Source: Candidatus Saccharimonadota bacterium (lineage in GTDB: Bacteria > Patescibacteriota > Saccharimonadia > CAILAD01 > BJGX01). Taken from it: a stretch of DNA of 64,000 nucleotides. Positions 18,456 through 37,675 of this stretch are shown in pieces. The translations under genes and the position numbers were made by a program. Numbering within the stretch: position 1 is the stretch's first letter; every line of letters starts with the position of its first letter. A model generated the notes under the pieces. That model did not search any database and was not told the DNA's origin. It worked only from the letters and a program-made list of their open reading frames with translations. Location: assembly GCA_016191105.1 (NCBI GenBank), contig JACPPH010000004.1, positions 65,230-129,229 on the forward strand, read 5' to 3'.

Positions 18456-18845
18456 GGCCGTTGCGGCGATCAGCAAGCAAGATAACAAAATACACTCTTG
18501 TTGCGAGAATTTGGTGTCTACCAAACCGCACAGCAACAGGAAAGTATTTTGCTGTAGAGCGCTGCTTTATCGTAAGCACAGGCCAAAGACTTTTGCTATC
18601 TTTTGGTCTTTCAAAAGATAGTTGCCCGAAGGGTAAAACCCTTTGAATCTTGCGCTGTCCGCACCGGACTTCTTTGTAGCGGAAAGTTGCCAAAGCTTCT
18701 GGCATGGGCTCAATCAAGTAGTATTCAGATAGATTTAACTTCGGGTTCTGCGGAACTCTCCGCTGGCACGCGGATCAAACAGTCCTCGCTTGCAGCACTT
18801 CGAGCTGCGCAAAGCTACGTCCAGCTGTTCGAATGCCAGACACGG
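18456..18845 (+). ncRNA. Copy 1 of a repeated structured non-coding element (5' domain plus 3' domain)
   Basis: Conserved against 22580-22968 and 37478-37675. Hairpin gctatcttttg-N6-caaaagatag and hairpin aaggg-taaaa-ccctt. Strand uncertain. Confidence 0.45.
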
Positions 18846-18863
18846 GGGGCAGACCAGATAGCG

Positions 18864-18893
18864 CTTGACAAGAGCCTAACTTTATAGTATACT
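18864..18893 (+). promoter_or_regulatory. Sigma70 promoter TTGACA-N17-TATACT upstream of island F
   Basis: Consensus -35 and good -10 with 17-nt spacing. Confidence 0.5.
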
Positions 18894-19042
18894 CTACAGA
18901 TTCAATCTTCGCTGTTCGCTAGTCAGCGAAAGCGAATTGTTGAACGCTCCTTGCTATTGCCTGCATTCTTGCGGGCAATCTGATGAGAAATTTTGAAATC
19001 TAAATAGTCAGCCCACCACAACTTCGCCCTTAGGAGGCAATC

Positions 19043-19456
19043 ATGGGTATCAACTATGCTGTCAGCGATCTGGGTGATGCCGACGGGTTGGCCGGAGAAC
19101 CGATCGATCAGCGCGCACTCGATCTAGCCGAGGCGCTCGAGATGTTCGTCGGCCTCACACATGATGCGGGTGCGAACTTCACGGTTCAGATCACCCTCGT
19201 CGACGAGACCAAGGTGGTCGTCTACTACACCCACTACCTGGGTTTGGTACCGTCGTCCAACCCGGAGAGGCTGTACAACAGCAGCAACTACGGGTTCTTC
19301 TACGCGTTCGAGAAGGATCCCGAGGATCATCTCGACACCTTCGACCAGTTCCTGTTCACCGTGGGGTGCATCGTCAAGGCGGCGCCCTGGATCTGCACCG
19401 AGCGGGTGCTGCGCCGCATCGTCGCCGGCGACGATGCTGGCCAACCAGCAGCATGA
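19043..19456 (+). CDS. Hypothetical acidic protein F1 (island F)
   Basis: AGGAGG Shine-Dalgarno 6 nt upstream. High GC. Confidence 0.4.
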   Translation: MGINYAVSDLGDADGLAGEPIDQRALDLAEALEMFVGLTHDAGANFTVQITLVDETKVVVYYTHYLGLVPSSNPERLYNSSNYGFFYAFEKDPEDHLDTFDQFLFTVGCIVKAAPWICTERVLRRIVAGDDAGQPAA

Positions 19457-19570
19457 TCATCGTTGTGGTGGAATGTGGGGGCCCTTCGGGGCCCCTGCCA
19501 CCACCAGGCTGACTATTTAGATATTCTCGTTAGCTTGCCCGTAAGGAACTGCAAACGATTGGAGATAATC

Positions 19571-19717
19571 ATGGATAAGAATGCGCAGATCATCAAGCTG
19601 GGGGTCTACTCCGAGCTCAACCTGACCTACGCCACCCGCAACGTCTGGTTCGACGACATCCTCATCGGCCATGTGCCGGCGGAGGATCTCGTGGAGCCCG
19701 AAGAGATCAGCAGCTGA
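19571..19717 (+). CDS. 48-aa hypothetical protein F2
   Basis: GGAG Shine-Dalgarno. Trimmed from the 84-aa table ORF to the internal ATG that has an RBS. Confidence 0.3.
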   Translation: MDKNAQIIKLGVYSELNLTYATRNVWFDDILIGHVPAEDLVEPEEISS

Positions 19718-19795
19718 ACCCCCAACGCAGGCAACAACGAAGCAAGGAGCTCCCGAGAACCGTTCTCCGCCAGCCGGCGGAACGCGGTGCTCGGG

Positions 19796-19849
19796 CCAGC
19801 TCCCGAGTTCTGATCCGCTGTCCAACGGAATTCAGGATTCAGGAGCTGG
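19796..19849 (+). repeat. 54-nt imperfect palindrome (ccagctcc...ggagctgg), copy 1, downstream of F2
   Basis: Near-identical copy at 20341-20394 downstream of F3. Confidence 0.6.
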
Positions 19850-19887
19850 AGTGTTACTCTAGCAAAAGTTCCTTGCAGTATCCGTAA

Positions 19888-19908
19888 CTTGTAGCAGTAT
19901 GCTACAAG
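19888..19908. promoter_or_regulatory. Perfect palindrome cttgtagca-gta-tgctacaag (operator-like) overlapping an extended -10 TGCTACAAG upstream of F3
   Basis: Seen directly. 9-bp arms. Confidence 0.45.
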
Positions 19909-19929
19909 TTCAATCGATTGGAGTGACTC

Positions 19930-20295
19930 ATGGAAGTGAAACACGAGAGAGGCGTCGTCGTGGCGTTCTATCCCGGGAGCGATTCCGGTGTTCTCGGCGT
20001 CTACGACGACAGGCTCATGCTGACCGACGAGGAGATCCTGTTCCATCTCGGTGATGGAACGATGATCAAGATCATCGATGACGACGCTGTCTTCGGTGAG
20101 CCGTTCGGCGATGACCAGAGCCCAGATGCGTCGTTGTTGCGGTGCCCCCGGGTTGGAGAGCTCGTCGTCTTCGAGAGGACCGAGCAGGACGGCGAGAACG
20201 TGAAGGCACGGCCATGGACGTACGGCTTCCTCTACGACAACTTCACGGGGGACATGAGGCCACCCTCCGGGGTGAGCAAGCGGCAGCCTGCCTGA
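19930..20295 (+). CDS. Hypothetical acidic protein F3
   Basis: GGAG Shine-Dalgarno. High GC. Asp/Glu-rich. Confidence 0.4.
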   Translation: MEVKHERGVVVAFYPGSDSGVLGVYDDRLMLTDEEILFHLGDGTMIKIIDDDAVFGEPFGDDQSPDASLLRCPRVGELVVFERTEQDGENVKARPWTYGFLYDNFTGDMRPPSGVSKRQPA

Positions 20296-20340
20296 AGCCC
20301 AACCCCAACAAGCAAGGAGCAACGGGCCGACTAGTTCGGC

Positions 20341-20394
20341 CCAGCTCCCGAGTTCTGATCCGCTATCCAGCGGAATTCAGGATTCAGGAGCTGG
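20341..20394 (+). repeat. 54-nt imperfect palindrome, copy 2
   Basis: See 19796-19849. Confidence 0.6.
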
Positions 20395-20494
20395 AACGCT
20401 TTAGTTCGAGCAAATCGCTCTTTGTTTTTGCAATACCTGGCCACGAGGTTCGTGGCAAGCAACCGACGGAAACAGACTACGAAAGGAAACCGTC

Positions 20495-21106
20495 ATGACA
20501 ACACACCTCTCCGAAGAGGCCCGCAAGATGATCGAGGACTTCACCACCGCCACCGTGAGCGCGTGGATGGATGCTGGCATCATCAAGACCAACTCCTGGG
20601 GCGTATGGCTCGAGGCCGACGACCCCAACGGCGACTTCGAGAACGCCGTCGATCACCGGTTCGGCTTCGACCACCCCGAGGGCAAGCACGACGCCGAGTG
20701 GTACATCGCCAACGCCAAGGGCAAGTGCGAAGCCTGCTTCGCCACCGGCAAGGACAGCCACGAGGCTGTTCGAACCTGGCAAGGCATGCTCAACGGCGTG
20801 GACGGCATCTTCCCTTGGGGCGGCGCGATCATCGACACCGACTATGGAATCTGCGTCGGCGTCAGCGGCTTCCGCGAGGACGAAGATCTGATGGTGGCCC
20901 GTGCCATCCGCAACTTCATCGTCATGCTGTTGGATCGCAAGGGGCAGAACTACATCGACGAGACCCGCGCACGCGGCAAGGACGATGCCCCCGATCCCAG
21001 CGACAGGTTCACCAGGGCCTCGAAGCCCGACGACTACGAGGACTTCGGCGAGGGTCCGATCGGCCGGGAGTTTTCGAAGACCACCCATCCGAACCTGACC
21101 ACCTAG
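20495..21106 (+). CDS. Hypothetical acidic protein F4 (203 aa)
   Basis: AAAGGAAA Shine-Dalgarno. High GC. Followed by the perfect hairpin gagcatccgcc-tca-ggcggatgctc (21129-21153). Confidence 0.45.
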   Translation: MTTHLSEEARKMIEDFTTATVSAWMDAGIIKTNSWGVWLEADDPNGDFENAVDHRFGFDHPEGKHDAEWYIANAKGKCEACFATGKDSHEAVRTWQGMLNGVDGIFPWGGAIIDTDYGICVGVSGFREDEDLMVARAIRNFIVMLLDRKGQNYIDETRARGKDDAPDPSDRFTRASKPDDYEDFGEGPIGREFSKTTHPNLTT

Positions 21107-21236
21107 TCGACAAGCAATGCAAAGAGCCGAGCATCCGCCTCAGGCGGATGCTCACAGCTCTCAAGCTAATCAGTTATGATTGGTTTAAGAGCTGAATCCA
21201 TAAGTCATTCTGAACTTGTTGCAGAATCTCAAAATT

Positions 21237-21530
21237 ATGAGCAAACAATATTACGTATACCTGCTGACTAATAAGACAAATCAAGTTTTGTATACTGGTG
21301 TAACTAGTGATTTAGTCAGACGAGTTAATGAACACAAAAATCATCTCGTTGAGGGGTACTCTGATAAATACAATGTAGATAAACTTGTATACTTTGAAGT
21401 GCTTGACGATCCCGAAAATGCAATTAAAAGGGAGAAGCAAATAAAAAATTGGCATAGAGACTGGAAGCTAAGCCAAATAAAGAAAAGTAATCCCAATATG
21501 AAGGACTTGTATGAGAAGATCCTGAAATAA
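21237..21530 (+). CDS. GIY-YIG nuclease family protein
   Basis: YVYLL...LYTGVT...RRVNEHK motifs. 8 nt upstream of truB. Confidence 0.8.
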   Translation: MSKQYYVYLLTNKTNQVLYTGVTSDLVRRVNEHKNHLVEGYSDKYNVDKLVYFEVLDDPENAIKREKQIKNWHRDWKLSQIKKSNPNMKDLYEKILK

Positions 21531-21537
21531 ATTCAGG

Positions 21538-22185
21538 ATGACAAGAACTATGCAAATAAAAGAAGGCATTCTACTCATAAACAAACCGCGCGGGCGGAGT
21601 AGTTTTAGTATGGTTGCCCAAGTGCGTCGAATTAGTGGTGTCAAACGGGTTGGCCATGCCGGCACCCTCGACCCGGAGGCCGAAGGCCTGCTGATAGTAC
21701 TAGTGGGTAAGGAGTACACCAAAAAGTCAGATAGCTTTCTTAAACTCGATAAAACTTATGAATTCACTATCAGGTTGGGCCAATCTAGCACAACAGGAGA
21801 TAAGGAAGGCGAGAAAACAGCTATCTCGAGCGATAAACCAACCGAAAAGGCCATTTTGAACGTTTTACAGGGCCTGCAGGGCGAGCTTAAGCAGGTTCCG
21901 CCTATTTATAGCGCTATCAAAGTAAACGGCCAGCGGGCCTATAAATTGGCCGCCAAGGGCCAAAAACCGGATTTAGAAGCTCGTGAGATAACCATTTACA
22001 GCTTAGAATTGCTCGATTACACCTATCCACAGCTAAAACTACGTGCCGAGGTTAGTAGTGGTACATATATACGGGTATTAGGTGAAACTATTGGGATGCA
22101 GCTTGGAACCGGGGCCTATTGCACCGAGATTATTCGTACCAAAATTGGCAAATATGACCTGAAAAATGCTATTATCTTAGATTAA
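21538..22185 (+). CDS. truB: tRNA pseudouridine(55) synthase
   Basis: Catalytic GHAGTLDPEAEGLL motif. Size fits TruB. Confidence 0.9.
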   Translation: MTRTMQIKEGILLINKPRGRSSFSMVAQVRRISGVKRVGHAGTLDPEAEGLLIVLVGKEYTKKSDSFLKLDKTYEFTIRLGQSSTTGDKEGEKTAISSDKPTEKAILNVLQGLQGELKQVPPIYSAIKVNGQRAYKLAAKGQKPDLEAREITIYSLELLDYTYPQLKLRAEVSSGTYIRVLGETIGMQLGTGAYCTEIIRTKIGKYDLKNAIILD

Positions 22186-22199
22186 TTTTTCCATCTACC

Positions 22200-22557
22200 T
22201 CCTAGTCATTCCCGCGTAGGCGGGAATCTAAACAATTTCTTGGTACAAGTCATTCCATTCGGGATTAGAAGATTCTATTTTGCGAATCTTCCAAGATCGA
22301 TTCCACTTCTTCATCTGGTTCTCTCTGACAATTGCCTCGTTGATATCGTCATATTGAGCGAACCAAACGAGCTTAGTAACGTTGTACTTTTTGGTGAACC
22401 CAGCTACTAAGTGATTTTTATGCTCGTAAACTCGTTTAGCCAGATTACTGGTAACACCAATATATAGAGTTCCATTGCGATCACTTGCCAATATATAAAC
22501 ATACCCAACTTTCATGAGCAGATATTATACTGGATTCCCGCCTATAAGCGGGAATGA
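22200..22557. mobile_element. Hairpin-flanked mini-element carrying a GIY-YIG gene
   Basis: Near-identical palindromic hairpins (stem ATTCCCGC/GCGGGAAT) at 22203-22224 and 22531-22555 bracket the gene. Confidence 0.4.
22228..22515 (-). CDS. GIY-YIG nuclease family protein (paralog of 21237-21530, ~55% identical)
   Basis: GYVYIL...LYIGVT...KRVYEHK. Confidence 0.8.
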   Translation of the reverse strand: MKVGYVYILASDRNGTLYIGVTSNLAKRVYEHKNHLVAGFTKKYNVTKLVWFAQYDDINEAIVRENQMKKWNRSWKIRKIESSNPEWNDLYQEIV

Positions 22558-22579
22558 CGGGTAGAGGGTGTTGTTCAAC

Positions 22580-22968
22580 GGCCGTTGCTACGATCAGCAA
22601 GCGAAGCCGCCAAGCAACGCTCCTGATTGCGAGAATTCGCTGGCTAGCGAACCGCACAGCAACAGGAAGTTGCGACTGGCTAAGTACTGCTAGATCGTAA
22701 GCACAGGCCAAACGGTTTTGCTATCTTTTGCCAAGACAAAAGATAGTTGCCCGAAGGGTAAAAACCCTTCAAACCTATGGCTTTAAGCAGCCGGCACTTC
22801 TTTGAGACCCAAAGAAGCAAAGCCTCCGACATGGGCTCACACCTGGTGGCTGCTTGCTCGCTCGCAAGCTGAAGCTGCGGAACTCGTCCGCCAGCTGGCG
22901 ACTCAGACAGTCCTCGCTTGCAGCGTTTCGTGCTTAGCATGCTGTGTCCAGCTGTTCGAATGTCGGCA
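22580..22968 (+). ncRNA. Copy 2 of the repeated structured non-coding element
   Basis: Aligns with copies 1 and 3. Carries the ttcgc/gcgaa hairpin where the other copies have tttgg/ccaaa (a compensatory change). Confidence 0.45.
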
Positions 22969-23029
22969 AGAAGGCTAATACCTTTGGGGGCTTGATTAAT
23001 TACCTGAAATCTGCTAATATTTAAAGTCT

Positions 23030-23296
23030 ATGATAGCTCAAACCACCAAGAAAAAGCTCATAAAAGACTACTCAACCCACGGCAAAGACACTGGTTCGGC
23101 CGAGGTTCAGATTGCTCTTTTTACCACCAAGATCAACGAGCTAACCAGCCATCTTAAGACCCACAAAAAAGATAATCACTCCAGGCGCGGATTGCTAGCT
23201 ATGGTAAGCAAACGCCGACGCCTGCTGGATTACTTGCAAAAGAAGAGTCCTGATCGATACTCAAAGCTCATCAAAAAACTGAAACTTCGCCGCTAG
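23030..23296 (+). CDS. rpsO: 30S ribosomal protein S15
   Basis: Typical S15 sequence ([35 protein letters not shown]). Confidence 0.9.
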
Positions 23297-23596
23297 TCGA
23301 CGAGTTTATTTGACAAGCTTCAGCGTTGCAATTTCCGTTGCTCGCTACACGTAGGCTTACTACGCTTTGCTGCACTACTCAATTGCGCCTTGAATCTTGT
23401 ACAAATATTCCTCGTCTTAAGGATTGCAGGCCTTCCAATTTAGCAATTTTGTGCTATATTGTAAGCGTACATTAAGTAACACATTTACTCTGCCGGTTAG
23501 TGATAGGATTAAGTGATCATCGCCTAAAAAACGATACTGATCAATTGCTTCTAGCACTAACTTAACAAAACCAGCGCAGAGTATATTAGGAGATAC

Positions 23597-25738
23597 ATGG
23601 ATATAATTCATCCATTTGGGGGTAAACAGGTAGAACTCGAAACCGAGTTTGCCGGCAAAAAACTAAAAATGACTACAGGCGACATGGCTTTTCGGGCCGA
23701 TGGCGAAGTTCGGGTTGCATATGGCGACACCGTGGTGTTGGCCACAGCTGTGGTAGCACCCGAGGTCAAAGCTGACACCGACTTCTTTCCGCTATTAATC
23801 GATTACGAGGAGCGGCTCTACGCCAGCGGTAAAATCAGCGGCAGTCGATTCATGAAGCGCGAAGGCCGACCGAGCGATCAGGCGGTGCTGACCTCACGAC
23901 TAATTGATCGACCATTGCGCCCACTCTTTCCCAAAGGTTACCGTAACGACGTGCAAGTTGTGGTAACGGTCTTGAGTGCTGATCTCGAGCACGAACCAGA
24001 TGTTATTGCTATAATTGCTGCCAGTACAGCACTAATGCTAACCGGCGCACCTTTTGATGGTCCGGTGGGTGCAGCTCGGATTGGTTTAATCGATGATAAG
24101 CTGGTGGCCAACCCAACTACCACCGAGCAAGAAGCTAGCAAGCTAAACCTGACAGTTGCTGGCACCAAAGATGCCGTGATGATGGTAGAGGCCAGTGCCA
24201 ACGAGGTGAGCGAAAAGACTCTGGTCGAAGCCCTGGAGCTAGCCGTTAAAACCTGGCAGCCGGTGATTAAGGCTCAGCAAGAGCTGGTGGAAAAACTCAA
24301 GGTTGAACCACGTGAATACCAGCTCTTTACCCCGAGCGAAGAAGCCCAGACCAAAATCGCAGAATTTCTAAAAGACCGCCTGGGCGAGACCATTCGCAAC
24401 GAAAATAAGCAAATGCGCCACGAAGCCTTGCAGACGCTCGAAGCCGAAGTCTTAAACGAATTTGGCACGCTCTCCGATGAGCTCAAGCCAGATAGCAAAG
24501 AACGCTTTGGTCACCCAGATGTATTGGCTGCATTCGAAAAGATTATTGATCGCGAGATTCGTCGCTCGATCTTAGAAGAGGGCAAGCGACCCGATAACCG
24601 TAAGACCACTGAGATCCGACCAATCAGCGGGCAAGTTGGCCTACTGCCACGCACCCATGGAAGTGCCGTGTTTACTCGTGGCACCACCCAAGCCTTAACC
24701 CTAACCACACTTGGGTCGACCTCGGCTGCACAGCTAATCGACACCATGGAAGAAGATCGCGAAAAACGCTACATACACCACTACAACTTTCCGCCGTTTA
24801 GCACTGGCGAGGCTAGACCCATGCGCTCAACAGGGCGCCGCGAGGTTGGCCACGGCTACCTGGCTGAACGAGCTTTGCTGCCAGTTATTCCAGTAGTCGA
24901 AGATTTTCCCTATACCATTCGAGTGGTTTCAGAAATGCTTAGTAGCGCTGGCTCAACCTCGATGGCTAGTGTTTGTGGCAGCACCATGAGCCTCATGGAT
25001 GCTGGTGTGCCAATCAGTAAACCGGTTAGCGGCATAGCCATGGGCCTAATGATTGATCACGACAATCCTAAAAAGTATGTAATCTTGAGCGACCTTCAAG
25101 ACGCCGAAGACTTTGCTGGTGACATGGACTTTAAGGTAGCTGGCACCGATGCTGGCATTACGGCGCTACAGATGGACATTAAAGTAAAGGGCATTACTCT
25201 AGAAATCATGAGCGCTGCCCTCAAGCAGGCCAGCCAGGGCCGAGCTCACATACTATCGAAGATGCTTGAGGTAATTGCTGAGCCCCGAGCCGAAACCAGC
25301 CAATATGCGCCACGCATTACCAAACTGCAGATTAGCCCAGATAAAATTCGCGAGGTGATTGGCAAAGGCGGTGAGACTATTCAAAAGATTATTGCCGAAA
25401 CCGGTGTGGAGATCGACATCGAAGACTCTGGTCTAGTAATGATTGCCAGTACCGACCAAAAAGCTGCCAAGGCCGCTACCGAATGGATTGAATCGATCGT
25501 GGTGGAGCCCGAGATTGGCAAGGTTTACGACGGCACTGTAGTTAAGGTCTTAGATTTCGGCGCTTTTGTAGAGATCTTGCCCGGCAAAGAGGGCATGGTG
25601 CACATTTCTCAAATCCGTGACGAGCGAGTTGAGGACATTCACAAGGAGCTCAAAGAGGGTGATAAAGTAACAGTTAAGTTACTCGAAATAGATTCTCAAG
25701 GACGACTCAACCTGTCTATAAAGGCTGCTAAAAAATAG
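23597..25738 (+). CDS. pnp: Polyribonucleotide nucleotidyltransferase (PNPase)
   Basis: Two RNase PH domains, KH and S1 domains. ~300-nt structured leader upstream. Confidence 0.95.
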   Translation: MDIIHPFGGKQVELETEFAGKKLKMTTGDMAFRADGEVRVAYGDTVVLATAVVAPEVKADTDFFPLLIDYEERLYASGKISGSRFMKREGRPSDQAVLTSRLIDRPLRPLFPKGYRNDVQVVVTVLSADLEHEPDVIAIIAASTALMLTGAPFDGPVGAARIGLIDDKLVANPTTTEQEASKLNLTVAGTKDAVMMVEASANEVSEKTLVEALELAVKTWQPVIKAQQELVEKLKVEPREYQLFTPSEEAQTKIAEFLKDRLGETIRNENKQMRHEALQTLEAEVLNEFGTLSDELKPDSKERFGHPDVLAAFEKIIDREIRRSILEEGKRPDNRKTTEIRPISGQVGLLPRTHGSAVFTRGTTQALTLTTLGSTSAAQLIDTMEEDREKRYIHHYNFPPFSTGEARPMRSTGRREVGHGYLAERALLPVIPVVEDFPYTIRVVSEMLSSAGSTSMASVCGSTMSLMDAGVPISKPVSGIAMGLMIDHDNPKKYVILSDLQDAEDFAGDMDFKVAGTDAGITALQMDIKVKGITLEIMSAALKQASQGRAHILSKMLEVIAEPRAETSQYAPRITKLQISPDKIREVIGKGGETIQKIIAETGVEIDIEDSGLVMIASTDQKAAKAATEWIESIVVEPEIGKVYDGTVVKVLDFGAFVEILPGKEGMVHISQIRDERVEDIHKELKEGDKVTVKLLEIDSQGRLNLSIKAAKK

Positions 25739-25790
25739 CTGCCCAAGTTCGTGTTCGCAGACTGCTGCGGGCGTCACTGGGGCAACTCGT

Positions 25791-26372
25791 ATGACCAAAG
25801 CTGAAAAACAGGCCAAATTAGACGAAATTGCCAAACCGATCTTGGATCGCAGCCTTGAGCTTGAGATCGCCAAGTCTTGTCTTAACCCGGTGCCGGGTGA
25901 GGGTAACCCAGCTGCCGAGATTATGTTTGTGGGCGAGGCGCCAGGCGCCGAAGAAGACAAGCAGAGCCGGCCATTCGTGGGGGCCAGCGGTAAGTTTCTA
26001 GAGAGCATGCTCGAAACAATTGATCGCAGCCGGCAAGACGTATTTATAACCAACATTGTAAAGTTCCGACCACCCAACAACCGCGATCCCTCCCGCGAAG
26101 AAATCCAAGCTTGCCTGCCGTACCTACTAGCTCAAATTAAAGTCATCGACCCCAAACTAATCGTGTTTCTGGGCCGCCACTCTATGAACGTATTTTTTCC
26201 GGAGCTGCGGATAAGCCAAGCTCATGGCCAGCCAGTTAAGCGTTCTGGGCGGGTGTTCTTGCCGCTTTATCACCCTGCGGCCGCACTCTATAACGGTTCC
26301 ATGCGCGCTATTTTGCAAGAAGATTTTGGCCGCATTCCAGCGATCTTACGCAAAGTTGAACAACAAAGCTGA
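25791..26372 (+). CDS. Uracil-DNA glycosylase, family 4
   Basis: GEAPGAEEDKQSRPFVGASGKFL and C-terminal HPAAAL motifs. Confidence 0.8.
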   Translation: MTKAEKQAKLDEIAKPILDRSLELEIAKSCLNPVPGEGNPAAEIMFVGEAPGAEEDKQSRPFVGASGKFLESMLETIDRSRQDVFITNIVKFRPPNNRDPSREEIQACLPYLLAQIKVIDPKLIVFLGRHSMNVFFPELRISQAHGQPVKRSGRVFLPLYHPAAALYNGSMRAILQEDFGRIPAILRKVEQQS

Positions 26373-26517
26373 CATAAAAGTGTCATCCTGAGCGAAGCCG
26401 AATTAGTAAACATTCGACCCCGGTCAAGATGACAATAAAGTCATACTCTAAACAATTAAACATGCTCACTGACATGTTGAGCAACAGATAGAAAGGAGCT
26501 TTAAAAAGCTTATAACT

Positions 26518-28596
26518 ATGAAAGAAGACAAACTAAAAAGCCGTCCGTTGACGGCTCAAGATTTGGGAGCCGCTACACAAGCTAAGGCTAAGAAGCCAAC
26601 AGCGTCTGCCAGCTCACCAAACAAACGAACACAAAATAATAACACTAAACCCGCCCAGAACAGGTCGAACAATTCGAGCAAACCAAGCAACCACCCTCGC
26701 GGCGGTAAGACCCAAAACGACAACCGACCAAACGATGGCGGCAAGCCAAATGGCAACCGACCCAATGGTGGTGGTAAACCACGCTCTGGCGGCGGTGGTG
26801 GTCAACGCCGGCGTTTCGACAAACGTCCTAGTGAGTACATGACCGGTACTTTTAACAAACTCGATCAAAGCAAGACCGCAGCCAAGGCGGTGGGGCTATC
26901 TAGGGCCGATGCCGGTAAGCTCAAAATCATTCCTTTGGGTGGTTTGGGCCAAATCGGCAAGAACGTTATGGCCTTAGAGTACGAAAATGACATGATTGTA
27001 ATGGATCTAGGCTTTATGTTCCCCGGCCCCGAACTACCTGGAATTGATTACATTATTCCTGATATTAGCTACCTCGAGGAGCGCAAGCACAAGATCCGTG
27101 GGCACTTTATTACCCATGCTCACTTAGACCACATAGGCGGCATTCCATTTATGTTGCCCAAGATGCCGGCGCCAATTTATGGTGCCAAATTCACTGTAAA
27201 GTTTATTGAGCGCCAACTAGAGGAGTATAAGCTGCCATTTAAGCCCGAGATGCATATTGTCGATCAAGATAACGGCCAGAAGATCCAAGCTGGTGTCTTT
27301 AGTATTGAATTTGTGCGAGTTAATCACTCCATTCCCGATGCCTGCGCCCTTGTGATCCGCACCCCGGCCGGCACCATCTTTAACACTGGTGACTGGCGGT
27401 TCGACCCCGATCCATACGACGGCAAGCCAACTGATCTAGCCAGGCTCAAGCAGATTGGCGATGAAGGTATATTACTATTGATGTGCGACTCCACCAGCTG
27501 TGAAACCATGGGTCGAAGCCCACGTGAGCAAGAAATTACCGAGACCCTCGATGAGATCTTTGCCCGCAATTACAACAAGCGGGTGATTATATCGTCGTTT
27601 TCATCACAGATTAGCCGTATGCAAATGATTATAGATGCTGTTGCCCGAGCTAAGCGCAAGATGGTGATTACTGGTCGCAGCATGCTCAGCAATGTCGAGC
27701 TAGCTGTAAAGATGGGCTACATTAAGATCCCGGCCAACACCATAATTCGTTCCCAAGACGTCAACAAATATCAAGATGGACAGGTAGCGATCTTGGCTAC
27801 CGGCTCGCAGGGTGAGGAGTTTGCAGTGCTAAACCGCATGGGTCGAGGTGAGGTCAAAGACATTAAGATTCGCAAAAACGATGTCGTGGTCTTGAGTTCG
27901 TCGATTATTCCAGGCAACGAAAAACCAATTTGGGGCATGATCGATAACATTTTGCGTTGGGGGCCGTATGTATACAGCAACGATCTGCGTCGCTTTGACG
28001 ATCTAGATATTATGCATATTTCTGGCCACGCCTACTACGAAGAGGTGGAGCAGATGATTAAGCTGATTCGACCTAAATACTATCTGCCAATTCACGGTGA
28101 GTTGCACCACTTGGTGCACAACAAACAGATCTGTATTCGCAGCAAAGTGGTATCAGAAGACAAGATTTTTGTAATCGAGAACGGCCAAACTCTAGTGGCC
28201 GAAAAGGGTACCGTTAAGTTGGGAGCTAAGATACCCGTGCCAGACGTGCTGATCGATGGCGCAGGTATTGGCGACGTTCAAGAGATTGTACTCAAGGACC
28301 GTATAGCCATGTCCGAAGAAGGCGTGTTTACGGTGATTGCCACGGTGCAACGCAAAACCGGCAAACTGCTCACCAGCCCCGATATTATTAGCCGCGGCTT
28401 CATCTACATGAAAGATAACGAAGAGCTAGTTAACGGTGCCCGCCAGATCGTTAAAAATATCTTCGCGGGTCGACAAGGCAATGTGCCGCCTAGCTCACCA
28501 ATTATCAAAACTCGTATTCGCGACGAAGTCAGCAACTATCTCTATAAGGTAACCAAGCGCAACCCGATTGTATTACCAGTGGTGATAGAGGTTTAA
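26518..28596 (+). CDS. rnj: Ribonuclease J (metallo-beta-lactamase/beta-CASP) with an N-terminal Arg/Gly/Asn-rich disordered extension
   Basis: HxHxDH motif (HAHLDHIGG), beta-CASP region, ~550-aa core after a ~130-aa low-complexity N-terminus. Confidence 0.9.
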   Translation: MKEDKLKSRPLTAQDLGAATQAKAKKPTASASSPNKRTQNNNTKPAQNRSNNSSKPSNHPRGGKTQNDNRPNDGGKPNGNRPNGGGKPRSGGGGGQRRRFDKRPSEYMTGTFNKLDQSKTAAKAVGLSRADAGKLKIIPLGGLGQIGKNVMALEYENDMIVMDLGFMFPGPELPGIDYIIPDISYLEERKHKIRGHFITHAHLDHIGGIPFMLPKMPAPIYGAKFTVKFIERQLEEYKLPFKPEMHIVDQDNGQKIQAGVFSIEFVRVNHSIPDACALVIRTPAGTIFNTGDWRFDPDPYDGKPTDLARLKQIGDEGILLLMCDSTSCETMGRSPREQEITETLDEIFARNYNKRVIISSFSSQISRMQMIIDAVARAKRKMVITGRSMLSNVELAVKMGYIKIPANTIIRSQDVNKYQDGQVAILATGSQGEEFAVLNRMGRGEVKDIKIRKNDVVVLSSSIIPGNEKPIWGMIDNILRWGPYVYSNDLRRFDDLDIMHISGHAYYEEVEQMIKLIRPKYYLPIHGELHHLVHNKQICIRSKVVSEDKIFVIENGQTLVAEKGTVKLGAKIPVPDVLIDGAGIGDVQEIVLKDRIAMSEEGVFTVIATVQRKTGKLLTSPDIISRGFIYMKDNEELVNGARQIVKNIFAGRQGNVPPSSPIIKTRIRDEVSNYLYKVTKRNPIVLPVVIEV

Positions 28597-29276
28597 TCTA
28601 AGGGTCGTACCCTTAGATTAAACCTCGCCTGGGTCAATGGCCAGTTCGTGCTTAATCTTATCGAGCTCATCTCGTGTCGGCTTGTATTCATCCACGAACT
28701 CGAGATAGTCTTGGTTCTCGAAAAGGTTTAAGATCCGATGGGGAAGTAACCAATCTGAGCTACATAGACCGGTATAATATGACAAGCTTGACCACTGCCA
28801 GTGCTGGTAGTCGTTGGGATTAAGATGAATATAGCGCGATATGTGGAGCAAATAACTGTCCGAGCTAATTCTAGAAGCCCGGTAACGTTGTTGAAAAACT
28901 GGCCCAATCCGTTTATAGCGATCGTTGAAATACATACCATAGGCCACACCAACGCTTTTCATTAATAACTTCATGGCATCAACGGTCTGTTGATACAGAA
29001 GGAGATGAAAATGATTAGGCATCAAGCAAAATGCCAAAAGCTCTACGGTGCCAAAGTATGTGGGGTATTGTACGCCAGCCGAATTTTTTGCTGGGGTACT
29101 GCTCAAATAGCGCTTTAGAAGCCCCACAAACACAGCATAATCTCTATCATCATTGAAAATGACTTGACGATTCACCCCACGATTATAGACGTGGTAAAAA
29201 CTCTGAGGAGCGTATTGTTTGTAAATATTCCTACCAGGCATGACGCTCATTCTAAGGGTACGACCCTTAGAATACA
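28591..29276 (-). mobile_element. IS200/IS605-family insertion sequence (tnpA only) with subterminal hairpins at both ends
   Basis: Right end has the palindrome gtttaatctaagggtcgtacccttagattaaac directly after the rnj stop. Left end has the hairpin attctaagggtacgacccttagaat at 29249-29273. Confidence 0.7.
28618..29250 (-). CDS. tnpA: IS200-like Y1 (HUH) transposase TnpA / REP-associated tyrosine transposase-like
   Basis: HFHLLL (HuH) motif, conserved Y in YKRIGPVFQQRY, and N-terminus MPGRNIYKQYAPQSFYHVYNRG. The 310-aa table ORF is trimmed to the start after the left-end hairpin. Confidence 0.75.
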   Translation of the reverse strand: MSVMPGRNIYKQYAPQSFYHVYNRGVNRQVIFNDDRDYAVFVGLLKRYLSSTPAKNSAGVQYPTYFGTVELLAFCLMPNHFHLLLYQQTVDAMKLLMKSVGVAYGMYFNDRYKRIGPVFQQRYRASRISSDSYLLHISRYIHLNPNDYQHWQWSSLSYYTGLCSSDWLLPHRILNLFENQDYLEFVDEYKPTRDELDKIKHELAIDPGEV

Positions 29277-29680: not shown

Positions 29681-29774
29681 CACAAACCCTCACACCAACA
29701 CCAACCTCAAAAAGCAAAAAAGGCGATCAATGACGATCGCTTGGGCAGCTCAACGACGAGCTGCCCTTTGCGTT

Positions 29775-31532: not shown

Positions 31533-31809
31533 AAGAGGTTTATTGTATCTGGAAAACTAATATTTGACAAGGCTATTTTTTATGTTTTGGTTGTGCTATA
31601 ATAGACAGCAACAAGTACAGTTTTGTTGTTCGAGGCTAGTGCCAACAACTACAACAAGCCAAAGTTCTCATTTCATTCGAACCATAGGGCCTAAAACCAC
31701 TAGCATTATTTAGCCAAGTGTGGTATAATATACATCATGCTCAAGTAATTGAGTATTTTAATCAGGTTAGTATCTGTTACGTCAGCGACCAGGAGGGTAT
31801 AATAGCGCT

Positions 31810-33969
31810 ATGGTGCGAAAGAAGCACAAAAAGAAACCAGCTAAGCTCCAAAAAGGCAAAAAGCTTAACAAAAAAGAGCAGCAAGAAAAGGCTGAAGCTC
31901 AAGCTGAGCTTAAGCGCTCGATAGTACGCGAGATAGTTGCCATTATTTTGATTGCTTTGGCAGTCTTTTTACTGCTGGCCAGCTTTGGTTTGGCGGCCAC
32001 TGCAGGCGCTTGGATTCTGGGAGCTATTAAGGTGGTGATTGGCTTAAGTGCCTATGTCTTGCCGCTCACATTATTATTGACGGCCTGGGTGCTGTTCTTG
32101 CCCGAAAAGTATCAGCTCAGGGGCTATAACATATTGGGTCAAATGGCGTTTTATGTGTTTTTGAGTAGCATATTTGCCTTTATATTTAAATCGAACAGTC
32201 CGGACATAACTGTTTTGGCCAACCAGGGTGGCTTGGTGGGCTATGGTTTGTACGCGCTAATGTCACCAGTGCTAAACCAGTGGGTGGCGATCTTTATCCT
32301 CAGCGCATTATTAACTATCAGCATTGTGATTGCCGCTAATGCCCGACTCAAGGACATAATTATCAAGACTTTGTCGCTATTTGGCTTGCGTCGCAAGGAT
32401 GGCGAAGATGGCAACGAAGAAACCGAACCAAAATTCCAAATTAATACCAAACTACCCATAAAGGGCACGATTGGCAACGAAGACCAAGACCAGCCCAAAG
32501 AGAAAGAGGAGGCCTTAACTGGTGCGCTTGACAAAGACTGGAAATACCCAAGCTTGGATTTACTAGAAGAGGGTGGTAGCAAGGCCGACGCCGGCGACGT
32601 TAAGGCCAATGCCAAGCTTATACAAGACACCTTGGCTCACTTTGGTATCGATGTATCGATGGCCGATGTAAATATTGGCCCCACGGTTGCTCAATACAGT
32701 CTTAAGCCACCAACCGGTGTTAAGTTGAACAAGATTACTACCCTAGACCGAGACCTAGCCCTAGCCCTAGCTCAGCACCCAATCCGCATTGAGGCACCAA
32801 TTCCAGGCAAGAGCTTGGTCGGCATAGAGGTTCCAAACAAGAAGGTGGCCATGGTGCGCCTGCGCGACATTTTGGCTAGCAAAGATATGGATCAATACAA
32901 GTCCAGACTGGATTTTGTGTTGGGTCGTGATGTATCGGGCGAGATTGTGGTGGCCGATCTCAACAAGATGCCACACTTGCTGATAGCTGGTGCTACCGGC
33001 GCCGGTAAGAGCGTTACCATAAGTGCGCTAATTGCCAGCCTGCTGTATCGCAATAGTCCGAGTGAGCTTAAGCTCATATTGGTCGACCCTAAGCGCGTCG
33101 AGATGACCCCTTACAACGATATCCCGCACTTATTAACACCGGTAATAACTGAGCCCGATAAAACTATCAGCTCACTCAAGTGGGCGGTTGCCGAGATGGA
33201 GCGCCGTTATAAATTATTCTCAGAAACCGCCAACAAGAACATCTCTGAATACAACTCTAGTAATCGTGAAGATGCCATGCCATTCATTGTAATTTTAATT
33301 GATGAGTTGGCCGACCTAATGATGGTGGCTGCCAAAGAGGTTGAGGGTTTGATTGTGCGCTTGGCTCAGATGGGCCGGGCGGCTGGTATGCACTTGGTGC
33401 TGGCCACCCAGCGCCCGGATGTCAATGTGATTACGGGTATAATTAAGGCCAACATACCAAGCCGAATTGCTTTGCGCACCGCCAGCCAGATAGACTCACG
33501 CACCATTCTAGACCAAGCTGGAGCCGAGAAGCTGATTGGCAATGGTGACATGTTGTTTGTGAATGCCGAACTCACTAAGCCTAAGCGTATTCAAGGCGTC
33601 TATATAGCCAATAAAGAAACTGAGAATCTAGCCAAATTCTTACGCGAACAGCGAGCTGCTGAATACAACGAAGAGGTGACTGCTCAAGCTGTAAAGATGC
33701 CGGGTAGCCCTGGCAGCCTAGAGAGTGCCGATGATGACATGTTTGAGCAGGCCGCAGAGGTGGTGATACAGAATAGCAAGGCCAGCGCTAGCTTATTGCA
33801 GCGACGCCTGAGGGTAGGGTATGCCCGTGCCGCTCGGCTAATAGACTTACTTGAAGAACGGGGTGTTGTTGGTCCACCCGATGGCGCTAGGCCACGCGAA
33901 GTTTTGGTTTCAGATATTTCTGATCTTATGGGCGGAAGCTTGGGCGGAGGCGAGGAACAGCCTAAGTGA
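31810..33969 (+). CDS. ftsK: DNA translocase FtsK
   Basis: N-terminal TM segments, motor domain (GATGAGKSV, Walker B VILIDELADL), C-terminal gamma wHTH. Confidence 0.9.
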   Translation: MVRKKHKKKPAKLQKGKKLNKKEQQEKAEAQAELKRSIVREIVAIILIALAVFLLLASFGLAATAGAWILGAIKVVIGLSAYVLPLTLLLTAWVLFLPEKYQLRGYNILGQMAFYVFLSSIFAFIFKSNSPDITVLANQGGLVGYGLYALMSPVLNQWVAIFILSALLTISIVIAANARLKDIIIKTLSLFGLRRKDGEDGNEETEPKFQINTKLPIKGTIGNEDQDQPKEKEEALTGALDKDWKYPSLDLLEEGGSKADAGDVKANAKLIQDTLAHFGIDVSMADVNIGPTVAQYSLKPPTGVKLNKITTLDRDLALALAQHPIRIEAPIPGKSLVGIEVPNKKVAMVRLRDILASKDMDQYKSRLDFVLGRDVSGEIVVADLNKMPHLLIAGATGAGKSVTISALIASLLYRNSPSELKLILVDPKRVEMTPYNDIPHLLTPVITEPDKTISSLKWAVAEMERRYKLFSETANKNISEYNSSNREDAMPFIVILIDELADLMMVAAKEVEGLIVRLAQMGRAAGMHLVLATQRPDVNVITGIIKANIPSRIALRTASQIDSRTILDQAGAEKLIGNGDMLFVNAELTKPKRIQGVYIANKETENLAKFLREQRAAEYNEEVTAQAVKMPGSPGSLESADDDMFEQAAEVVIQNSKASASLLQRRLRVGYARAARLIDLLEERGVVGPPDGARPREVLVSDISDLMGGSLGGGEEQPK

Positions 33970-35009
33970 GCGATGAACAGCTTAAAGAATCGGCGAAAGG
34001 CACCGACTCGCCGGCCAAGATTTCATTACATGTGGCTTTGCCGGAGCTACTGCAAAAACGCCGCAATGAGCTGGGCTATAGCTTAAAAGACGTCGAAAAA
34101 GCCATAAATGTTCGCGAGATTTACCTGGGTCAAATTGAAGCCGGTGATTACGACAAACTACCCGACGATGTCTACGCCAAGGGATACGTTAAAAACTATG
34201 CTGACTACTTAGGATTCGATACTAAGCCGATCATGCAGCTTTACACAAATGAACGTGTGGCTCACAAACAAGCCTCGGCCGACTCGCATAGCCGGCAAAA
34301 GTCATCGGGCTTTAACCTTAAGCCAATTGGTAGCGGGGCGGTTGTAGTTACTCCCAAGGCCATCGCTATACTGATAGGCGTGGCTACCTTTGTTATTGCT
34401 GCTGGCTATATATTGTGGCAGTTTGTGCTATTGGCGGCGCCACCCAAGATTAACCTAAATTCACAGATCCCAGGCACGGTTAACACCAGCTATATAATTG
34501 TCAGTGGCCAGATCGATGCTGGCAGTGATTTATTTATCAATAGCTCGCCGGTTCAAATTAGCCCCGACGGTAGCTTCTCGGAACGTATTGCGGTTGAGGA
34601 TGGTGATAACACCATAACTCTGATGGCGCGCAACAAGCTGGGTAAAACCAGCACTATGTCGAAAAATATTGTGGCTCGCCTGCCAAACTCAGCCAACGCC
34701 GATCTCGCGAGTCAGTTACCAGCCAACCCAGTCGACGGGGTGCAGATTGTTATAAAGGTAAATAAGCAAGCCACCTGGATTGTGGCTAAGGCTGACGGGC
34801 AAGATGCTTTTCACGGCACCATGCTACCGGGCTCCCAGCAGCTTATAAAAGCCAAGCAGAGCATAACTCTTACTACCGGTAATGGCGGCGCCACCAGTGT
34901 GGTTATCACCAACTCATCGGTAGCCCGCAAGAACCTTGGCCAACTTGGCAGAGATGGTGAGGCCAAGATTGATTTAACATTTAACAAAGACACCCAGTTT
35001 AGCCAGTAG
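33966..35009 (+). CDS. RodZ-like cytoskeleton protein (HTH, TM, DUF4115-like C-terminus)
   Basis: N-terminal Cro/C1-type HTH, one TM helix, beta-rich C-terminal domain. Confidence 0.6.
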   Translation: MSDEQLKESAKGTDSPAKISLHVALPELLQKRRNELGYSLKDVEKAINVREIYLGQIEAGDYDKLPDDVYAKGYVKNYADYLGFDTKPIMQLYTNERVAHKQASADSHSRQKSSGFNLKPIGSGAVVVTPKAIAILIGVATFVIAAGYILWQFVLLAAPPKINLNSQIPGTVNTSYIIVSGQIDAGSDLFINSSPVQISPDGSFSERIAVEDGDNTITLMARNKLGKTSTMSKNIVARLPNSANADLASQLPANPVDGVQIVIKVNKQATWIVAKADGQDAFHGTMLPGSQQLIKAKQSITLTTGNGGATSVVITNSSVARKNLGQLGRDGEAKIDLTFNKDTQFSQ

Positions 35010-35079
35010 TGCTTTACAGTATAGTTTTGAGCTGGTTAAATACCAATTAGGCTTTGTTCGTCGAAAACCTGGAGGAACC

Positions 35080-35400
35080 ATGGACAACAGCACTGCATCA
35101 GACCGGGTCCGTAGCTCGAGAGACCAACTGGTCAGATATCTTGAGGAACTTGGTGGCTATTCGGAGCAGCAACTAATCCAACTGATTGGGACCTGTGGAA
35201 CCAATCACCAACATCGAGCTAGCTGTGATAGGCACTTCTATCTGATCAAGCACCTCATCCACTGGCTTAAGTTTGGGCCCGTCTGGGTTCGAATCGACAG
35301 CCCGACCGGCCTAAGGTTCGCGCTGCCCGGGCCGAAGTACGAGATGTCGTGGTGGCAGATGGACTGGCCCGAGGGCATTCGGGTTTACTGCGAGGGCTAG
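35080..35400 (+). CDS. Hypothetical protein, high-GC island H
   Basis: GGAGG Shine-Dalgarno 5 nt upstream. Followed by a perfect 13-bp hairpin gcgtccgctgggg-aa-ccccagcggacgc (35413-35440). Confidence 0.35.
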   Translation: MDNSTASDRVRSSRDQLVRYLEELGGYSEQQLIQLIGTCGTNHQHRASCDRHFYLIKHLIHWLKFGPVWVRIDSPTGLRFALPGPKYEMSWWQMDWPEGIRVYCEG

Positions 35401-35594
35401 ACGTGCAAGGCCGCGTCCGCTGGGGAACCCCAGCGGACGCAGGCATGTTATTTACAGTGTAATATTTTTGCTTTACGCCCTCATTCAAACCTGATTAAAT
35501 AAGAGTACTAAAAATTTGCGAGAAAAAGTGTTGACATGTACGTTTCTTGTTCGGTACACTATCATTGAACATAATACGAACAAGGAGAAAGCCA

Positions 35595-36671
35595 ATGCCA
35601 ACAGCAACACCAGTAAAACAAGAAGGAAAGACCGAAATTATGGACAAGCCAAAAGCCAGTAGGAGTAGCTCAGATTCAGTCAGCAGCTCGGAACGAAAAT
35701 CTCGAATTAAAGCTGTAGATCTGGCTGTTGAACAAATCGAGCGCCAATTTGGCAAAGGCTCAATCATGAAGTTGGGTGAGGGGATGCAGGTTGCGGTTGA
35801 GACAATCCCAACTGGCAGCTTATCACTAGACCTTGCCTTGGGGGGAGGCATACCGCAGGGTCGAATTGTAGAAATTTATGGTCCAGAATCGAGCGGTAAA
35901 ACCACGTTGGCCTTGCACTCTGTTGCTGAGGTTCAAAACAGGGGTGGCTTGGCAGCTTTTATCGATGCCGAACATGCCTTGGATCCTGAATATGCCGCCA
36001 AAATCGGCGTTAATCTAGACGACTTATTAATATCGCAACCCGACACGGGCGAACAGGCCTTGGAGATTTGTGAGACCTTAGTGCGTTCTAGTGCTGTCGA
36101 CGTGGTAGTGGTTGACTCTGTCGCAGCCCTAGTGCCACGAGCCGAAATAGAGGGCGAGATGGGCGACAGCCACATGGGCTTACAGGCTCGTTTAATGAGC
36201 CAAGCTTTGCGCAAACTTACTGGTGTTATCGCCAAATCTAACACCACCGTTATCTTCATCAACCAGCTACGCATGAAGATTGGTGTGATGTTTGGTAATC
36301 CAGAGGTAACAGCTGGCGGTAATGCTCTTAAGTACTACTCGTCGGTGCGTCTCGACATTCGTCGTACAGAGCAAATTAAAGATGGTGATAACATTATTGG
36401 TAACCATGTAAAAGTAAAGGTTGTTAAGAATAAGATTGCTGCGCCATTTAGAATTGCCGAGTTTGATATTATGTACAACCAAGGCATTAGCAAGGCCGGC
36501 GACATGGTAGATCTAGCCGTCAAACACGGCTTAGTCGAAAAGGCCGGTGCCTGGTATGCCTACAAGGGTGAGAAGATTGGCCAGGGCCGTGAAGCTGCCA
36601 AGCAGTTTTTGAGCGACAATCCCAAAGTTATGAAAGAACTCGAGAAAGAGATCCGCTCTCAAGCAACTTAG
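35595..36671 (+). CDS. recA: Recombinase A
   Basis: Walker [11 protein letters not shown]1/L2 loops. AAGGAG Shine-Dalgarno 6 nt before the ATG chosen at MPTATPV. Confidence 0.95.
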
Positions 36672-36700
36672 AGCCAGTATTTAGCCACCTGCGAGTTGTT

Positions 36701-37315
36701 ATGCCTACTGTCACCGACATTACTCAACAAAAAAAACGTACTCAACTCTACAATATCTTTGTAGACGGTGCGTTTTTTTGTTCGCTTAGCGATCTACAAC
36801 TTAGTTTATCTGGCATTGGCATAGGGGACGAAGTTGAGCCAGATAAGCTAGCCGAGCTCAAACACTCTTCATTGTATTCTAAAACCTATGACCGAGCCTT
36901 GTATTACATAAGTTTTCGGCCACGTAGTACACACGAAGTACGCAAATACTTACAAGAGAAAATTGAAGATAGTGATCAAATAGAGCCTGTAGTTCAAAAA
37001 CTTTCTGAGCAACAATTGCTAGACGATCAGCAGTTTGCTCGCAACTGGATAGAAAACCGCAACCTGCTCAAGCCTCGTTCAAAACGACAATTGCAGCAAG
37101 AACTGCGACAAAAGGGTGTAGGCAGTGAGATCATTGAAGCTGTTTTGGCTGAGCAAAACCACGATCAAGAACTACAAAACATTCAAAAACTAATTGCTAA
37201 AAAAAGAAAAGCCAGCCGCAAGACTGATGATATGACTCTTATTTCGCACATGAGCGCACGCGGCTTTCGCTACGCCGACATCAAAGCCGTACTAGGGGCC
37301 GAGAGTGCCGGCTAG
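36701..37315 (+). CDS. recX: Regulatory protein RecX
   Basis: Position right after recA; repeated helical RecX-like modules. Confidence 0.75.
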   Translation: MPTVTDITQQKKRTQLYNIFVDGAFFCSLSDLQLSLSGIGIGDEVEPDKLAELKHSSLYSKTYDRALYYISFRPRSTHEVRKYLQEKIEDSDQIEPVVQKLSEQQLLDDQQFARNWIENRNLLKPRSKRQLQQELRQKGVGSEIIEAVLAEQNHDQELQNIQKLIAKKRKASRKTDDMTLISHMSARGFRYADIKAVLGAESAG

Positions 37316-37477
37316 CTACGCTTGAGTACGAATCTAAAAATCACGGCCGCCAGTACAACCCACAAAGCAATTACAACCACTTCACACTCCTCATTGCTAG
37401 GTATTATATTTGTTAAGCTATAATACTTCAATAGAAAAAACTTTTGTTTTTACAATCTCTGACACTCGATCTTCTTC

Positions 37478-37675
37478 GGCCGTTGCCAACGATCGGCAAG
37501 CGAAGCCATTAAGCAACGCTCTTGTTTGCGAGAATTTGGTTGTTACCAAACCGCGCTAGCCTCCAAGAAGTTTCGACTGGCTGAGCACTGCTAGACTGTA
37601 AGCATAGGCCAGGCGGTTTTGCTATCTTTTGCCAAGACAAAAGATAGTCGCCCGAAAGGGTGAAAGAATTTCAGC
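37478..37675 (+). ncRNA. Copy 3 (5' domain only) of the repeated structured non-coding element
   Basis: Aligns with copies 1 and 2 up to the gctatcttttg...caaaagatag hairpin. Confidence 0.4.

Follow-up and report, generated by a model that had tools for sequence, protein, structure and literature searches.

What is the structured, non-coding sequence that recurs among the housekeeping genes of a Candidatus Saccharibacteria (TM7) chromosome? The stretch of DNA analyzed here, 64 kb of contig JACPPH010000004.1 (referred to as the window), is an ordinary chromosomal region of this group and carries three copies of the element in question. A preliminary description, made from the letters of the window alone, offered two options for it, a structured RNA or a structured mobile DNA. 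The element is a real, lineage-restricted structured non-coding repeat that has an unusual nested-palindrome architecture and is without relatives in the databases searched. Its ends are homologous and inverted, its hairpins have been kept, and at two loci it is an insertion relative to related genomes. The explanation favored here, held with moderate confidence, is that of an old, lineage-specific, non-autonomous mobile repeat that works in the manner of a miniature inverted-repeat transposable element (MITE), a REPIN, or an ERIC element. It is best described as like a MITE or a REPIN without being a demonstrated member of either.

Three copies and their inverted modules

The copies found by alignment and blastn, 185–388 nucleotides (nt) long and 73–84% identical, agree in number and position with those first described:

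18455..18839, + strand: copy 1, full-length, module M followed by inverted module M' (alignment, blastn)
22579..22966, + strand: copy 2, full-length element (alignment, blastn)
37477..37661, + strand: copy 3, solo module M without M' (alignment)

In blastn comparisons, copies 1 and 2 are 73% identical over 390 nt (E 4e-49), copies 2 and 3 are 84% identical over 189 nt (E 1e-49), and copies 1 and 3 are 73% identical over 190 nt (E 1e-18). There are no further copies in the window and none in about 14 kb searched outside it; the genome covered overall is about 78 kb, comprising the window and L011, L012, and L016. The copies are dispersed, and beyond their long hairpins, here called rods, their flanks share no homology. 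A protein-coding reading was rejected, in agreement with the preliminary description, as each frame is interrupted by stops in at least one copy, the alignment contains many single-nucleotide insertions and deletions, and no open reading frame (ORF) is conserved. A translated ORF of the element, searched in case a copy elsewhere had been wrongly annotated as a gene, matches nothing in a protein database of 5.8 billion sequences.

The element also fails to match known RNA families, as had been claimed for it. Rfam 15, the scope of which includes 6S, SRP, tmRNA, RNase P, group I/II introns, HEARO, ROOL, GOLLD, and OLE, returns no match to any part of the window at gathering thresholds, and for the copies, with E values up to 10 allowed, nothing but noise. 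ARAGORN finds neither tRNA nor tmRNA in the window.

The initial account divided the element into a 5' domain present in all copies and a 3' domain confined to copies 1 and 2. The 5' blocks quoted in it are indeed invariant in the alignment (CGGCCGTTGC, TTGCGAGAATT, GTAAGCA.AGGCC, TTTTGCTATCTTTTG-N6-CAAAAGATAGT, and GCCCGAA), and the 3' blocks CAGTCCTCGCTTGCAGC and GTCCAGCTGTTCGAATG are common to copies 1 and 2 only. The similarity between the 3' parts is real, but they do not form an independent domain; each is a diverged inverted copy (M') of the approximately 190-nt 5' module (M). When the 5' modules of the three copies were made into a covariance model (R1), this model unexpectedly also hit the 3' half of copy 2, on the minus strand at 22775–22965(-) (cmsearch). 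Comparison of the copy 2 module with the reverse complements of the 3' halves gives scores of 56–70, as against a maximum of 50 among 1500 random window segments and 19–36 in forward-orientation controls. The window contains four instances of the motif GCGAGRAYT-N10-40-CCGCA and no more, two on the plus strand in the M modules of copies 1 and 2 and two on the minus strand in their M' modules, where chance would supply 0.05. The inverted homology spans about 170 nt, with the order of the parts mirrored between M and M'. The full element is a pseudo-palindrome of about 385 nt that runs from rod A through an invariant 11-base pair (bp) hairpin and a central small hairpin, then in mirror image to rod B:

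Copy 1, 18455..18585, + strand: rod A, an irregular hairpin of about 130 nt closed by GGCC/GGCC (folding)
Copy 1, 18503-18530, + strand: apical motif of rod A, GCGAGAATT-hairpin-AACCGCA
Copy 1, 18595..18622, + strand: invariant 11-bp hairpin, GCTATCTTTTG-GTCTTT-CAAAAGATAGT
Copy 1, 18624..18643, + strand: center, two overlapping small hairpins, GCCC-GAA-GGG(T) and AAGGGT-AAA-ACCCTT
Copy 1, about 18668-18688: degenerate M' counterpart of the invariant hairpin
Copy 1, 18699..18839, - strand: rod B of M', inverted homologue of rod A, closed by CUGGCAU/AUGCCAG
Copy 1, 18749-18789, - strand: M' motif GCGAGGACT...CCGCA
Copy 2, 22579..22709, + strand: rod A, with its apical motif at 22629-22656
Copy 2, 22720..22747, + strand: invariant 11-bp hairpin, loop CCAAGA
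Copy 2, 22749..22769, + strand: central small hairpins GCCC-GAA-GGG(T) and AAGGGT-AAAA-ACCCTT
Copy 2, 22797..22817, - strand: M' counterpart of the invariant hairpin, CTTCTTTG-AGACC-CAAAGAAG
Copy 2, 22826..22966, - strand: rod B of M', about 140 nt, closed by CCGACAU/AUGUCGG
Copy 2, 22876-22917, - strand: M' motif GCGAGGACT...CCGCA
Copy 3, + strand: rod A at 37477-37610, invariant hairpin at 37621-37648, and GCCC-GAAA-GGGT at 37650-37661

In minimum-free-energy folds each rod pairs with itself, and M is not paired with M'. Copy 3 is partly decayed, with substitutions that break three pairs of its apical rod helix.

Hairpins, strands, and insertion sites

Two kinds of evidence bear on what the element is: the manner in which its hairpins have been maintained and the places in which it lies. 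The copies fold more stably than their shuffled counterparts with RNA parameters (z -2.5 to -5.5), and the rods are predicted with DNA parameters as well (z -3.6 and -5.6). In the three-copy alignment of M, six pairs are changed on both sides, a number reached by 4 of 500 shuffles, and in the two-copy alignment of the full element 12 pairs are so changed, a number reached by 1 of 500, whereas slid controls drop to about 35–40% paired; in each case the counts rest on two or three sequences and on structures derived from those same sequences. The pairing statistics are accordingly supportive rather than conclusive, and the covariation support is modest. Individual changes can be followed in detail. 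The compensatory hairpin reported at the outset is real (helix 3, in which TTTGG/CCAAA becomes TTCGC/GCGAA), as is the stem that stays the same while its loop changes: all 11 bp are identical in three of three copies, with the loop GTCTTT in copy 1 and CCAAGA in copies 2 and 3. In the middle of rod A the sequence of copy 1 is substituted wholesale relative to that of the other two copies, with pairing kept, and the closing stems of rod B in copies 1 and 2 differ by two compensatory changes.

The copy 1 loop (18606-18611) also approximates the reverse complement, TCTTGG, of the loop in copies 2 and 3 (22731-22736 in copy 2) at a 1-nt offset, a likeness that could reflect inversion of the loop across a perfect palindrome or chance.

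Of the alternatives first offered, structured RNA or structured mobile DNA, the structure itself is borne out by these compensatory changes, but folding does not choose between RNA and DNA. Both strands fold equally well by energy, with equal G-U counts. Among one-sided stem changes in the plus strand structure there is a slight lean to G-U (12 G-U cells as against 3 A-C cells), and the G-U count is equally high in the structure predicted on the minus strand; there is no clear strand bias, so that a strand is not assignable from these counts. No promoter or intrinsic terminator of the element's own is consistently placed at the copies.

The genes among which the copies lie include dnaG, rpoD, polA, a DHH-family gene, truB, rpsO, pnp (the PNPase gene, 23597-25738, with a product 100% identical to an NCBI protein of a Candidatus Saccharibacteria bacterium), an RNase J gene, ftsK, recA, recX, ssb, efp, type IV pilus genes, and mnmG. 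Copy 1 is preceded by the DHH-family gene, which stops at 18429, and followed by a strong promoter, TTGACA-17-TATACT (18865-18893). Copy 2 lies between a GIY-YIG mini-element (ending at 22560) and the rpsO promoter, TTGATT-17-TAATAT. Copy 3 separates recX from a convergent PRC-barrel gene, whose stop codon (37671-37673) is about 10 nt away from the end of the copy. The neighbors named in the preliminary description are confirmed: copy 2 has the GIY-YIG gene (Pfam E 2.9e-17) on its left, and copy 1 has a GC-rich island on its right. Each copy follows a plus strand gene (DHH gene, truB, or recX) in the same orientation throughout, and copies 1 and 2 start about 25–30 nt past a stop codon, not counting the GIY-YIG insertion. 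The 5' flanks of the copies have a weak motif in common, TTC(W)(W), and all copies lie on the G-rich strand, with neither flank nor orientation significant at n = 3.

Two of these sites can be compared with orthologous sites in relatives, the genomes of loci L003 (GCA_029781735.1; PNPase 77% identical) and L001 (PNPase 89% identical). In L003, the genes run DHH, promoter, small ORF, truB, and rpsO, with the promoter within 6 nt of the DHH stop codon and truB running into the rpsO promoter, and there is neither element nor GIY-YIG gene. In L001, a small GC-rich ORF and its leader precede rpsO, and copy 2 is absent. As the orthologous sites are empty in both relatives, the copies behave as insertions. 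Immediately after 22966 the window keeps a stub, GGCAAGAAGGC, that matches this L001 sequence, so that copy 2 ends on the right where rod B ends.

Searches for relatives were uniformly negative. Exact-pattern scans for the invariant hairpin, the apical motif, and the 3' blocks yielded zero relatives in GTDB genomes, IMG/VR, and JGI metagenomes, where five metagenome matches carry the hairpin alone and are otherwise unrelated to the element. Nor did blastn give a match to phages and plasmids. The covariance-model search proposed in the preliminary description was carried out with R1 on related Saccharibacteria loci and window flanks, about 140 kb in all, and brought to light no more copies. Neither the GIY-YIG protein nor the S15 protein is on record in exactly this form from another contig. 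In short-read (Logan) data of the same strain, the contigs are interrupted at the hairpins, with one contig ending at 18598 and another spanning 22776 to about 37644.

A separate observation concerns the metagenome contigs L006 (420-650), L008 (5830-6060), and L010 (1150-1380), which have in common a conserved, apparently non-coding region of about 200 nt that ends in a GCTATCTTTTG...CAAAAGATAGC hairpin. Rfam offers no match to this region, which apart from the hairpin bears no relation to the element.

A proposed mobile repeat and its rivals

Inverted homologous ends, a motif carried on opposite strands, equal foldability of both strands, and a lack of transcription signals of its own are what the ends of a transposable unit look like. 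As inverted ends are what transposons have, the second option of the preliminary description, structured mobile DNA, is favored. The maintenance of the hairpins suggests that they are recognized while the DNA is single-stranded or extruded, in the manner of REPINs (PMC3116915) and of the ends of IS200/IS605 elements. The surroundings are a hotspot for insertions and also contain a cassette-like array of ORFs and two GIY-YIG mini-elements. The element is short, non-coding, and multi-copy and has empty orthologous sites, as expected of a MITE, albeit by comparison with relatives that are distant. In Pseudomonas fluorescens, REP (repetitive extragenic palindromic) singlets are decaying remnants (PMC3116915), and the pair-breaking changes of copy 3 match this decay.

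A mechanism along the following lines would accommodate these features. The approximately 385-nt unit consists of two inverted end modules of about 190 nt, M and M', each with a rod, a subterminal GCGAGRAYT-hairpin-CCGCA motif, and a hairpin that is short but strong. A transposase or nuclease acting in trans would recognize the same motif and hairpin at both ends with two-fold symmetry, probably on single-stranded or extruded DNA, and may once have copied the unit into intergenic gaps. The conserved blocks would then represent cis-requirements for mobility and copy 3 a decaying half-element. The copies today are probably immobile passengers, and if transcribed as the 3' tails of upstream genes they would form stable RNA rods.

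Several observations weigh against mobility. The outermost 8 nt of the element match at only 6 of 8 positions (GGCCGTTG compared with GGCATTCG), and M and M' resemble each other most in their interior, not at the termini. Target-site duplications were looked for at every copy, and no flanking direct repeat was found, although the insertions are old enough for a duplication to have decayed. These same results, no clean terminal inverted repeats and no target-site duplications, keep the element apart from simple MITEs, in keeping with the preliminary description. No autonomous parent or cognate transposase was found, and there is no DDE transposase in the approximately 78 kb of genome. The element is present in three copies over that distance, 16–27% diverged, a divergence that gives no hint of recent activity. 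None of the collections searched contains a relative, which leaves mobility between genomes without support. The genomes that lack the element are distant (77–89% protein identity), and its absence could formally represent loss there instead of gain here. Finally, co-evolving inverted protein-binding arms can mimic covariation of the RNA type, so that one mechanism cannot be told from another by the hairpins.

A tentative alternative is that the element represents a structured non-coding RNA family, either as cis-acting 3' untranslated region structures that protect or terminate the DHH, truB, and recX mRNAs or as paralogous small RNAs processed from these mRNAs, with M read from the plus strand. 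The uniform placement of the copies 3' of plus strand genes, at a similar distance past the stop codon in copies 1 and 2, fits such a role, as do folds more stable than shuffles, compensatory changes, the slight lean to G-U on the plus strand, and invariant sequence blocks within internal loops. Against this, the element is without promoter or intrinsic terminator, the minus strand folds equally well with as high a G-U count, no Rfam family matches, and the element is missing from the orthologous loci of relatives and from all collections searched. Moreover, a function of the plus strand RNA leaves unexplained why M' keeps the motif on the opposite strand.

A more doubtful possibility is that M is a Saccharibacteria-specific module of structured RNA or single-stranded DNA whose hairpin and GCGAGRAYT/CCGCA loop are bound by a dedicated protein, and that it was spread neither as a classical DDE MITE nor by a REP/RAYT system. 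One possible propagator would be a hairpin-guided nuclease such as the neighboring mini GIY-YIG enzymes. The ends of the GIY-YIG elements (GTCATTC...) have in common with the element (GACATTC...) only a degenerate heptamer, which lies within the rod B stem.

The mini GIY-YIG genes are of interest in their own right. Both lie within one 2-kb stretch, at 21206-21543 (+ strand, 104 amino acids, called from N-terminal sequence) and 22197-22560 (- strand, 95 amino acids, Pfam E 2.9e-17), and one is situated between the truB leader and the truB start codon. Each is bounded by GTCAT-hairpin ... hairpin-ATGAC, and both are missing from the same sites in relatives.

Two further explanations appear improbable. 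In the first, the element would be a duplex-DNA site for a dimeric binding protein or a site-specific recombinase, with an 11-6-11 palindrome as its core, like Xer/dif or an operator, and the rods as accessory arms. Invariant 11-bp arms around a variable 6-bp spacer are expected where a protein contacts the arms, the two-fold symmetry of M and M' suits a dimeric complex, and a tyrosine recombinase gene is present at 61095-62006. However, copies 2 and 3 have the same spacer in direct orientation, so that recombination between them would delete 15 kb with the essential genes pnp, the RNase J gene, ftsK, and recA; other occurrences of the half-site in the window are no more frequent than chance predicts; and the wholesale compensatory replacement within the rods is left unexplained. 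Nor is a resemblance to the XerD arm known.

In the second, to which equally little probability attaches, the element would be of the REPIN/BIME type and mobilized by a REP-associated Y1 transposase (RAYT), the gene for which (28618-29241, - strand) is the only transposase gene in the window. It encodes the HUH motif (HFH) and the catalytic-Tyr region and is flanked by inverted REP hairpins, TCTAAGGGT-CGT/ACG-ACCCTTAGA (28588-29275). The pattern AAGGGT-N2-6-ACCCTT occurs five times in the window against a chance expectation of 0.03, three times in the RAYT REPs and once at the center of each of copies 1 and 2. The layout of doublets and a singlet, together with the compensatory hairpin changes, parallels REPINs (PMC3116915). 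The link through this shared 6-bp stem was nonetheless set aside, as the element is without the CGT/ACG loop of the family-wide REP core: RAYT homologues at three other Saccharibacteria loci (L013, L014, and L015) have flanking REPs with the same GGGT-CGT/ACG-ACCC core as here, loop included, whereas the element has the loop AAA(A), and copy 3 is without the central AAGGGT hairpin. In addition, no M sequences flank the RAYT gene, and the RAYT-bearing loci of other genomes are without M-like sequence.

The REPs themselves are scattered beyond the RAYT gene. A third REP, a second copy of the 5' REP, is found with the first 60 or so nt of the RAYT gene at 40045-40131, 10.8 kb away, and L014 has extra scattered REPs at 2552 and 2615.

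The mobile repeat favored here can be set beside known systems, none of which it fits completely. REPINs and BIMEs are REP doublets that form hairpins and are mobilized by RAYTs (Bertels and Rainey 2011, PMC3116915). Like them, the element is extragenic and non-coding and has two inverted conserved units, long hairpins that are predicted to form in single-stranded DNA or mRNA and show compensatory changes, solo units that resemble decaying remnants, and a RAYT gene in the same genome. Unlike them, it has units of about 190 nt rather than about 20–40 nt, and M and M' fold separately, each rod pairing with itself, rather than as two inverted units in one hairpin. It is present in three copies only, and it is not near-identical to the repeat that flanks the RAYT gene here, another REP (TCTAAGGGT-CGT-ACCCTTAGA) with a different loop.

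The size of the element, its lack of an ORF, its inverted ends, its location at gene ends, and its variable presence also recall the MITEs that form RNA or DNA rods. These families, ERIC/IRU, Correia/NEMIS, and RUP, are ORF-less repeats of 100–400 bp with inverted end symmetry, which lie in intergenic regions near gene ends, are co-transcribed as stable stem-loops, and vary in presence between related genomes. The element differs from them in that it lacks clean terminal inverted repeats, with end similarity that peaks internally, and each of its ends is itself a long palindrome; neither a target-site duplication nor a parent insertion sequence with matching ends was found. The PATEs derived from IS200/IS605 elements have neither terminal inverted repeats nor target-site duplications and carry sub-terminal hairpins that are recognized as single-stranded DNA. 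The element resembles these in its lack of clean terminal repeats and of a duplication, in sub-terminal hairpins that would be recognized in the same way, and in its single orientation on the G-rich strand and weak TTC(W)(W) flank; with three copies, neither the orientation nor the flank is significant. In PATEs, however, the left and right hairpins are on the same strand, whereas the modules of the element are inverted, and no cognate TnpA with matching hairpins was found.

Other repeats in the window and the meaning of the element

Three other features of the window are likewise repetitive. The GC-rich island at 19000-21200 (58–61% GC as against about 47% elsewhere) contains four small ORFs without Pfam matches (19043-19456, 19571-19717, 19930-20295, and 20495-21106), the last three of which are each followed by a conserved structured repeat of about 90 nt (19743-19850, 20310-20395, and 21113-21195). 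This repeat, AAGGAGC-hairpin-CAGCTCCC...CAGGAGCTGG, is also found before truB in L003 (8826-8925) and before rpsO in L001 (270-360). Within it, AGGAGCUG resembles the Shine-Dalgarno sequence of the next gene, CAGCUCC an anti-Shine-Dalgarno sequence, and AAGGAGC an anti-anti-Shine-Dalgarno sequence, a composition suggestive of a switch for translational coupling that is used repeatedly along a cassette-like array. Elsewhere, direct repeats of 215 nt (43976-44190 and 45957-46171; 96% identical) bracket a 2-kb insert of low GC content (34–37%) that carries an HATPase/DUF4325 gene (44646-45692, - strand) and has the appearance of an integrated element whose attachment region is duplicated. A hairpin, CTCCCAAA...TTTGGGAG, followed by a common tail, AACGACAACC, occurs at two intergenic sites (10179-10231 and 13071-13116) and may be a terminator or another small repeat family.

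The genomes of Saccharibacteria are tightly packed and of about 1 Mb, and a persistent, selectively constrained repeat of about 385 nt is unexpected in them. At the practical level, the element accounts for the breaks in the short-read assemblies of this strain at the hairpins, and its nested-palindrome architecture illustrates how inverted protein-binding ends can mimic the covariation taken as a signature of RNA. If the element acts as RNA, it would constitute a new RNA class specific to the candidate phyla radiation (CPR). If M is instead the target of a dedicated protein, it would represent a new type of selfish structured element in the ultra-small genomes of the CPR. If, as favored here, the element is or formerly was mobile, it marks an unrecognized transposition system in these organisms.

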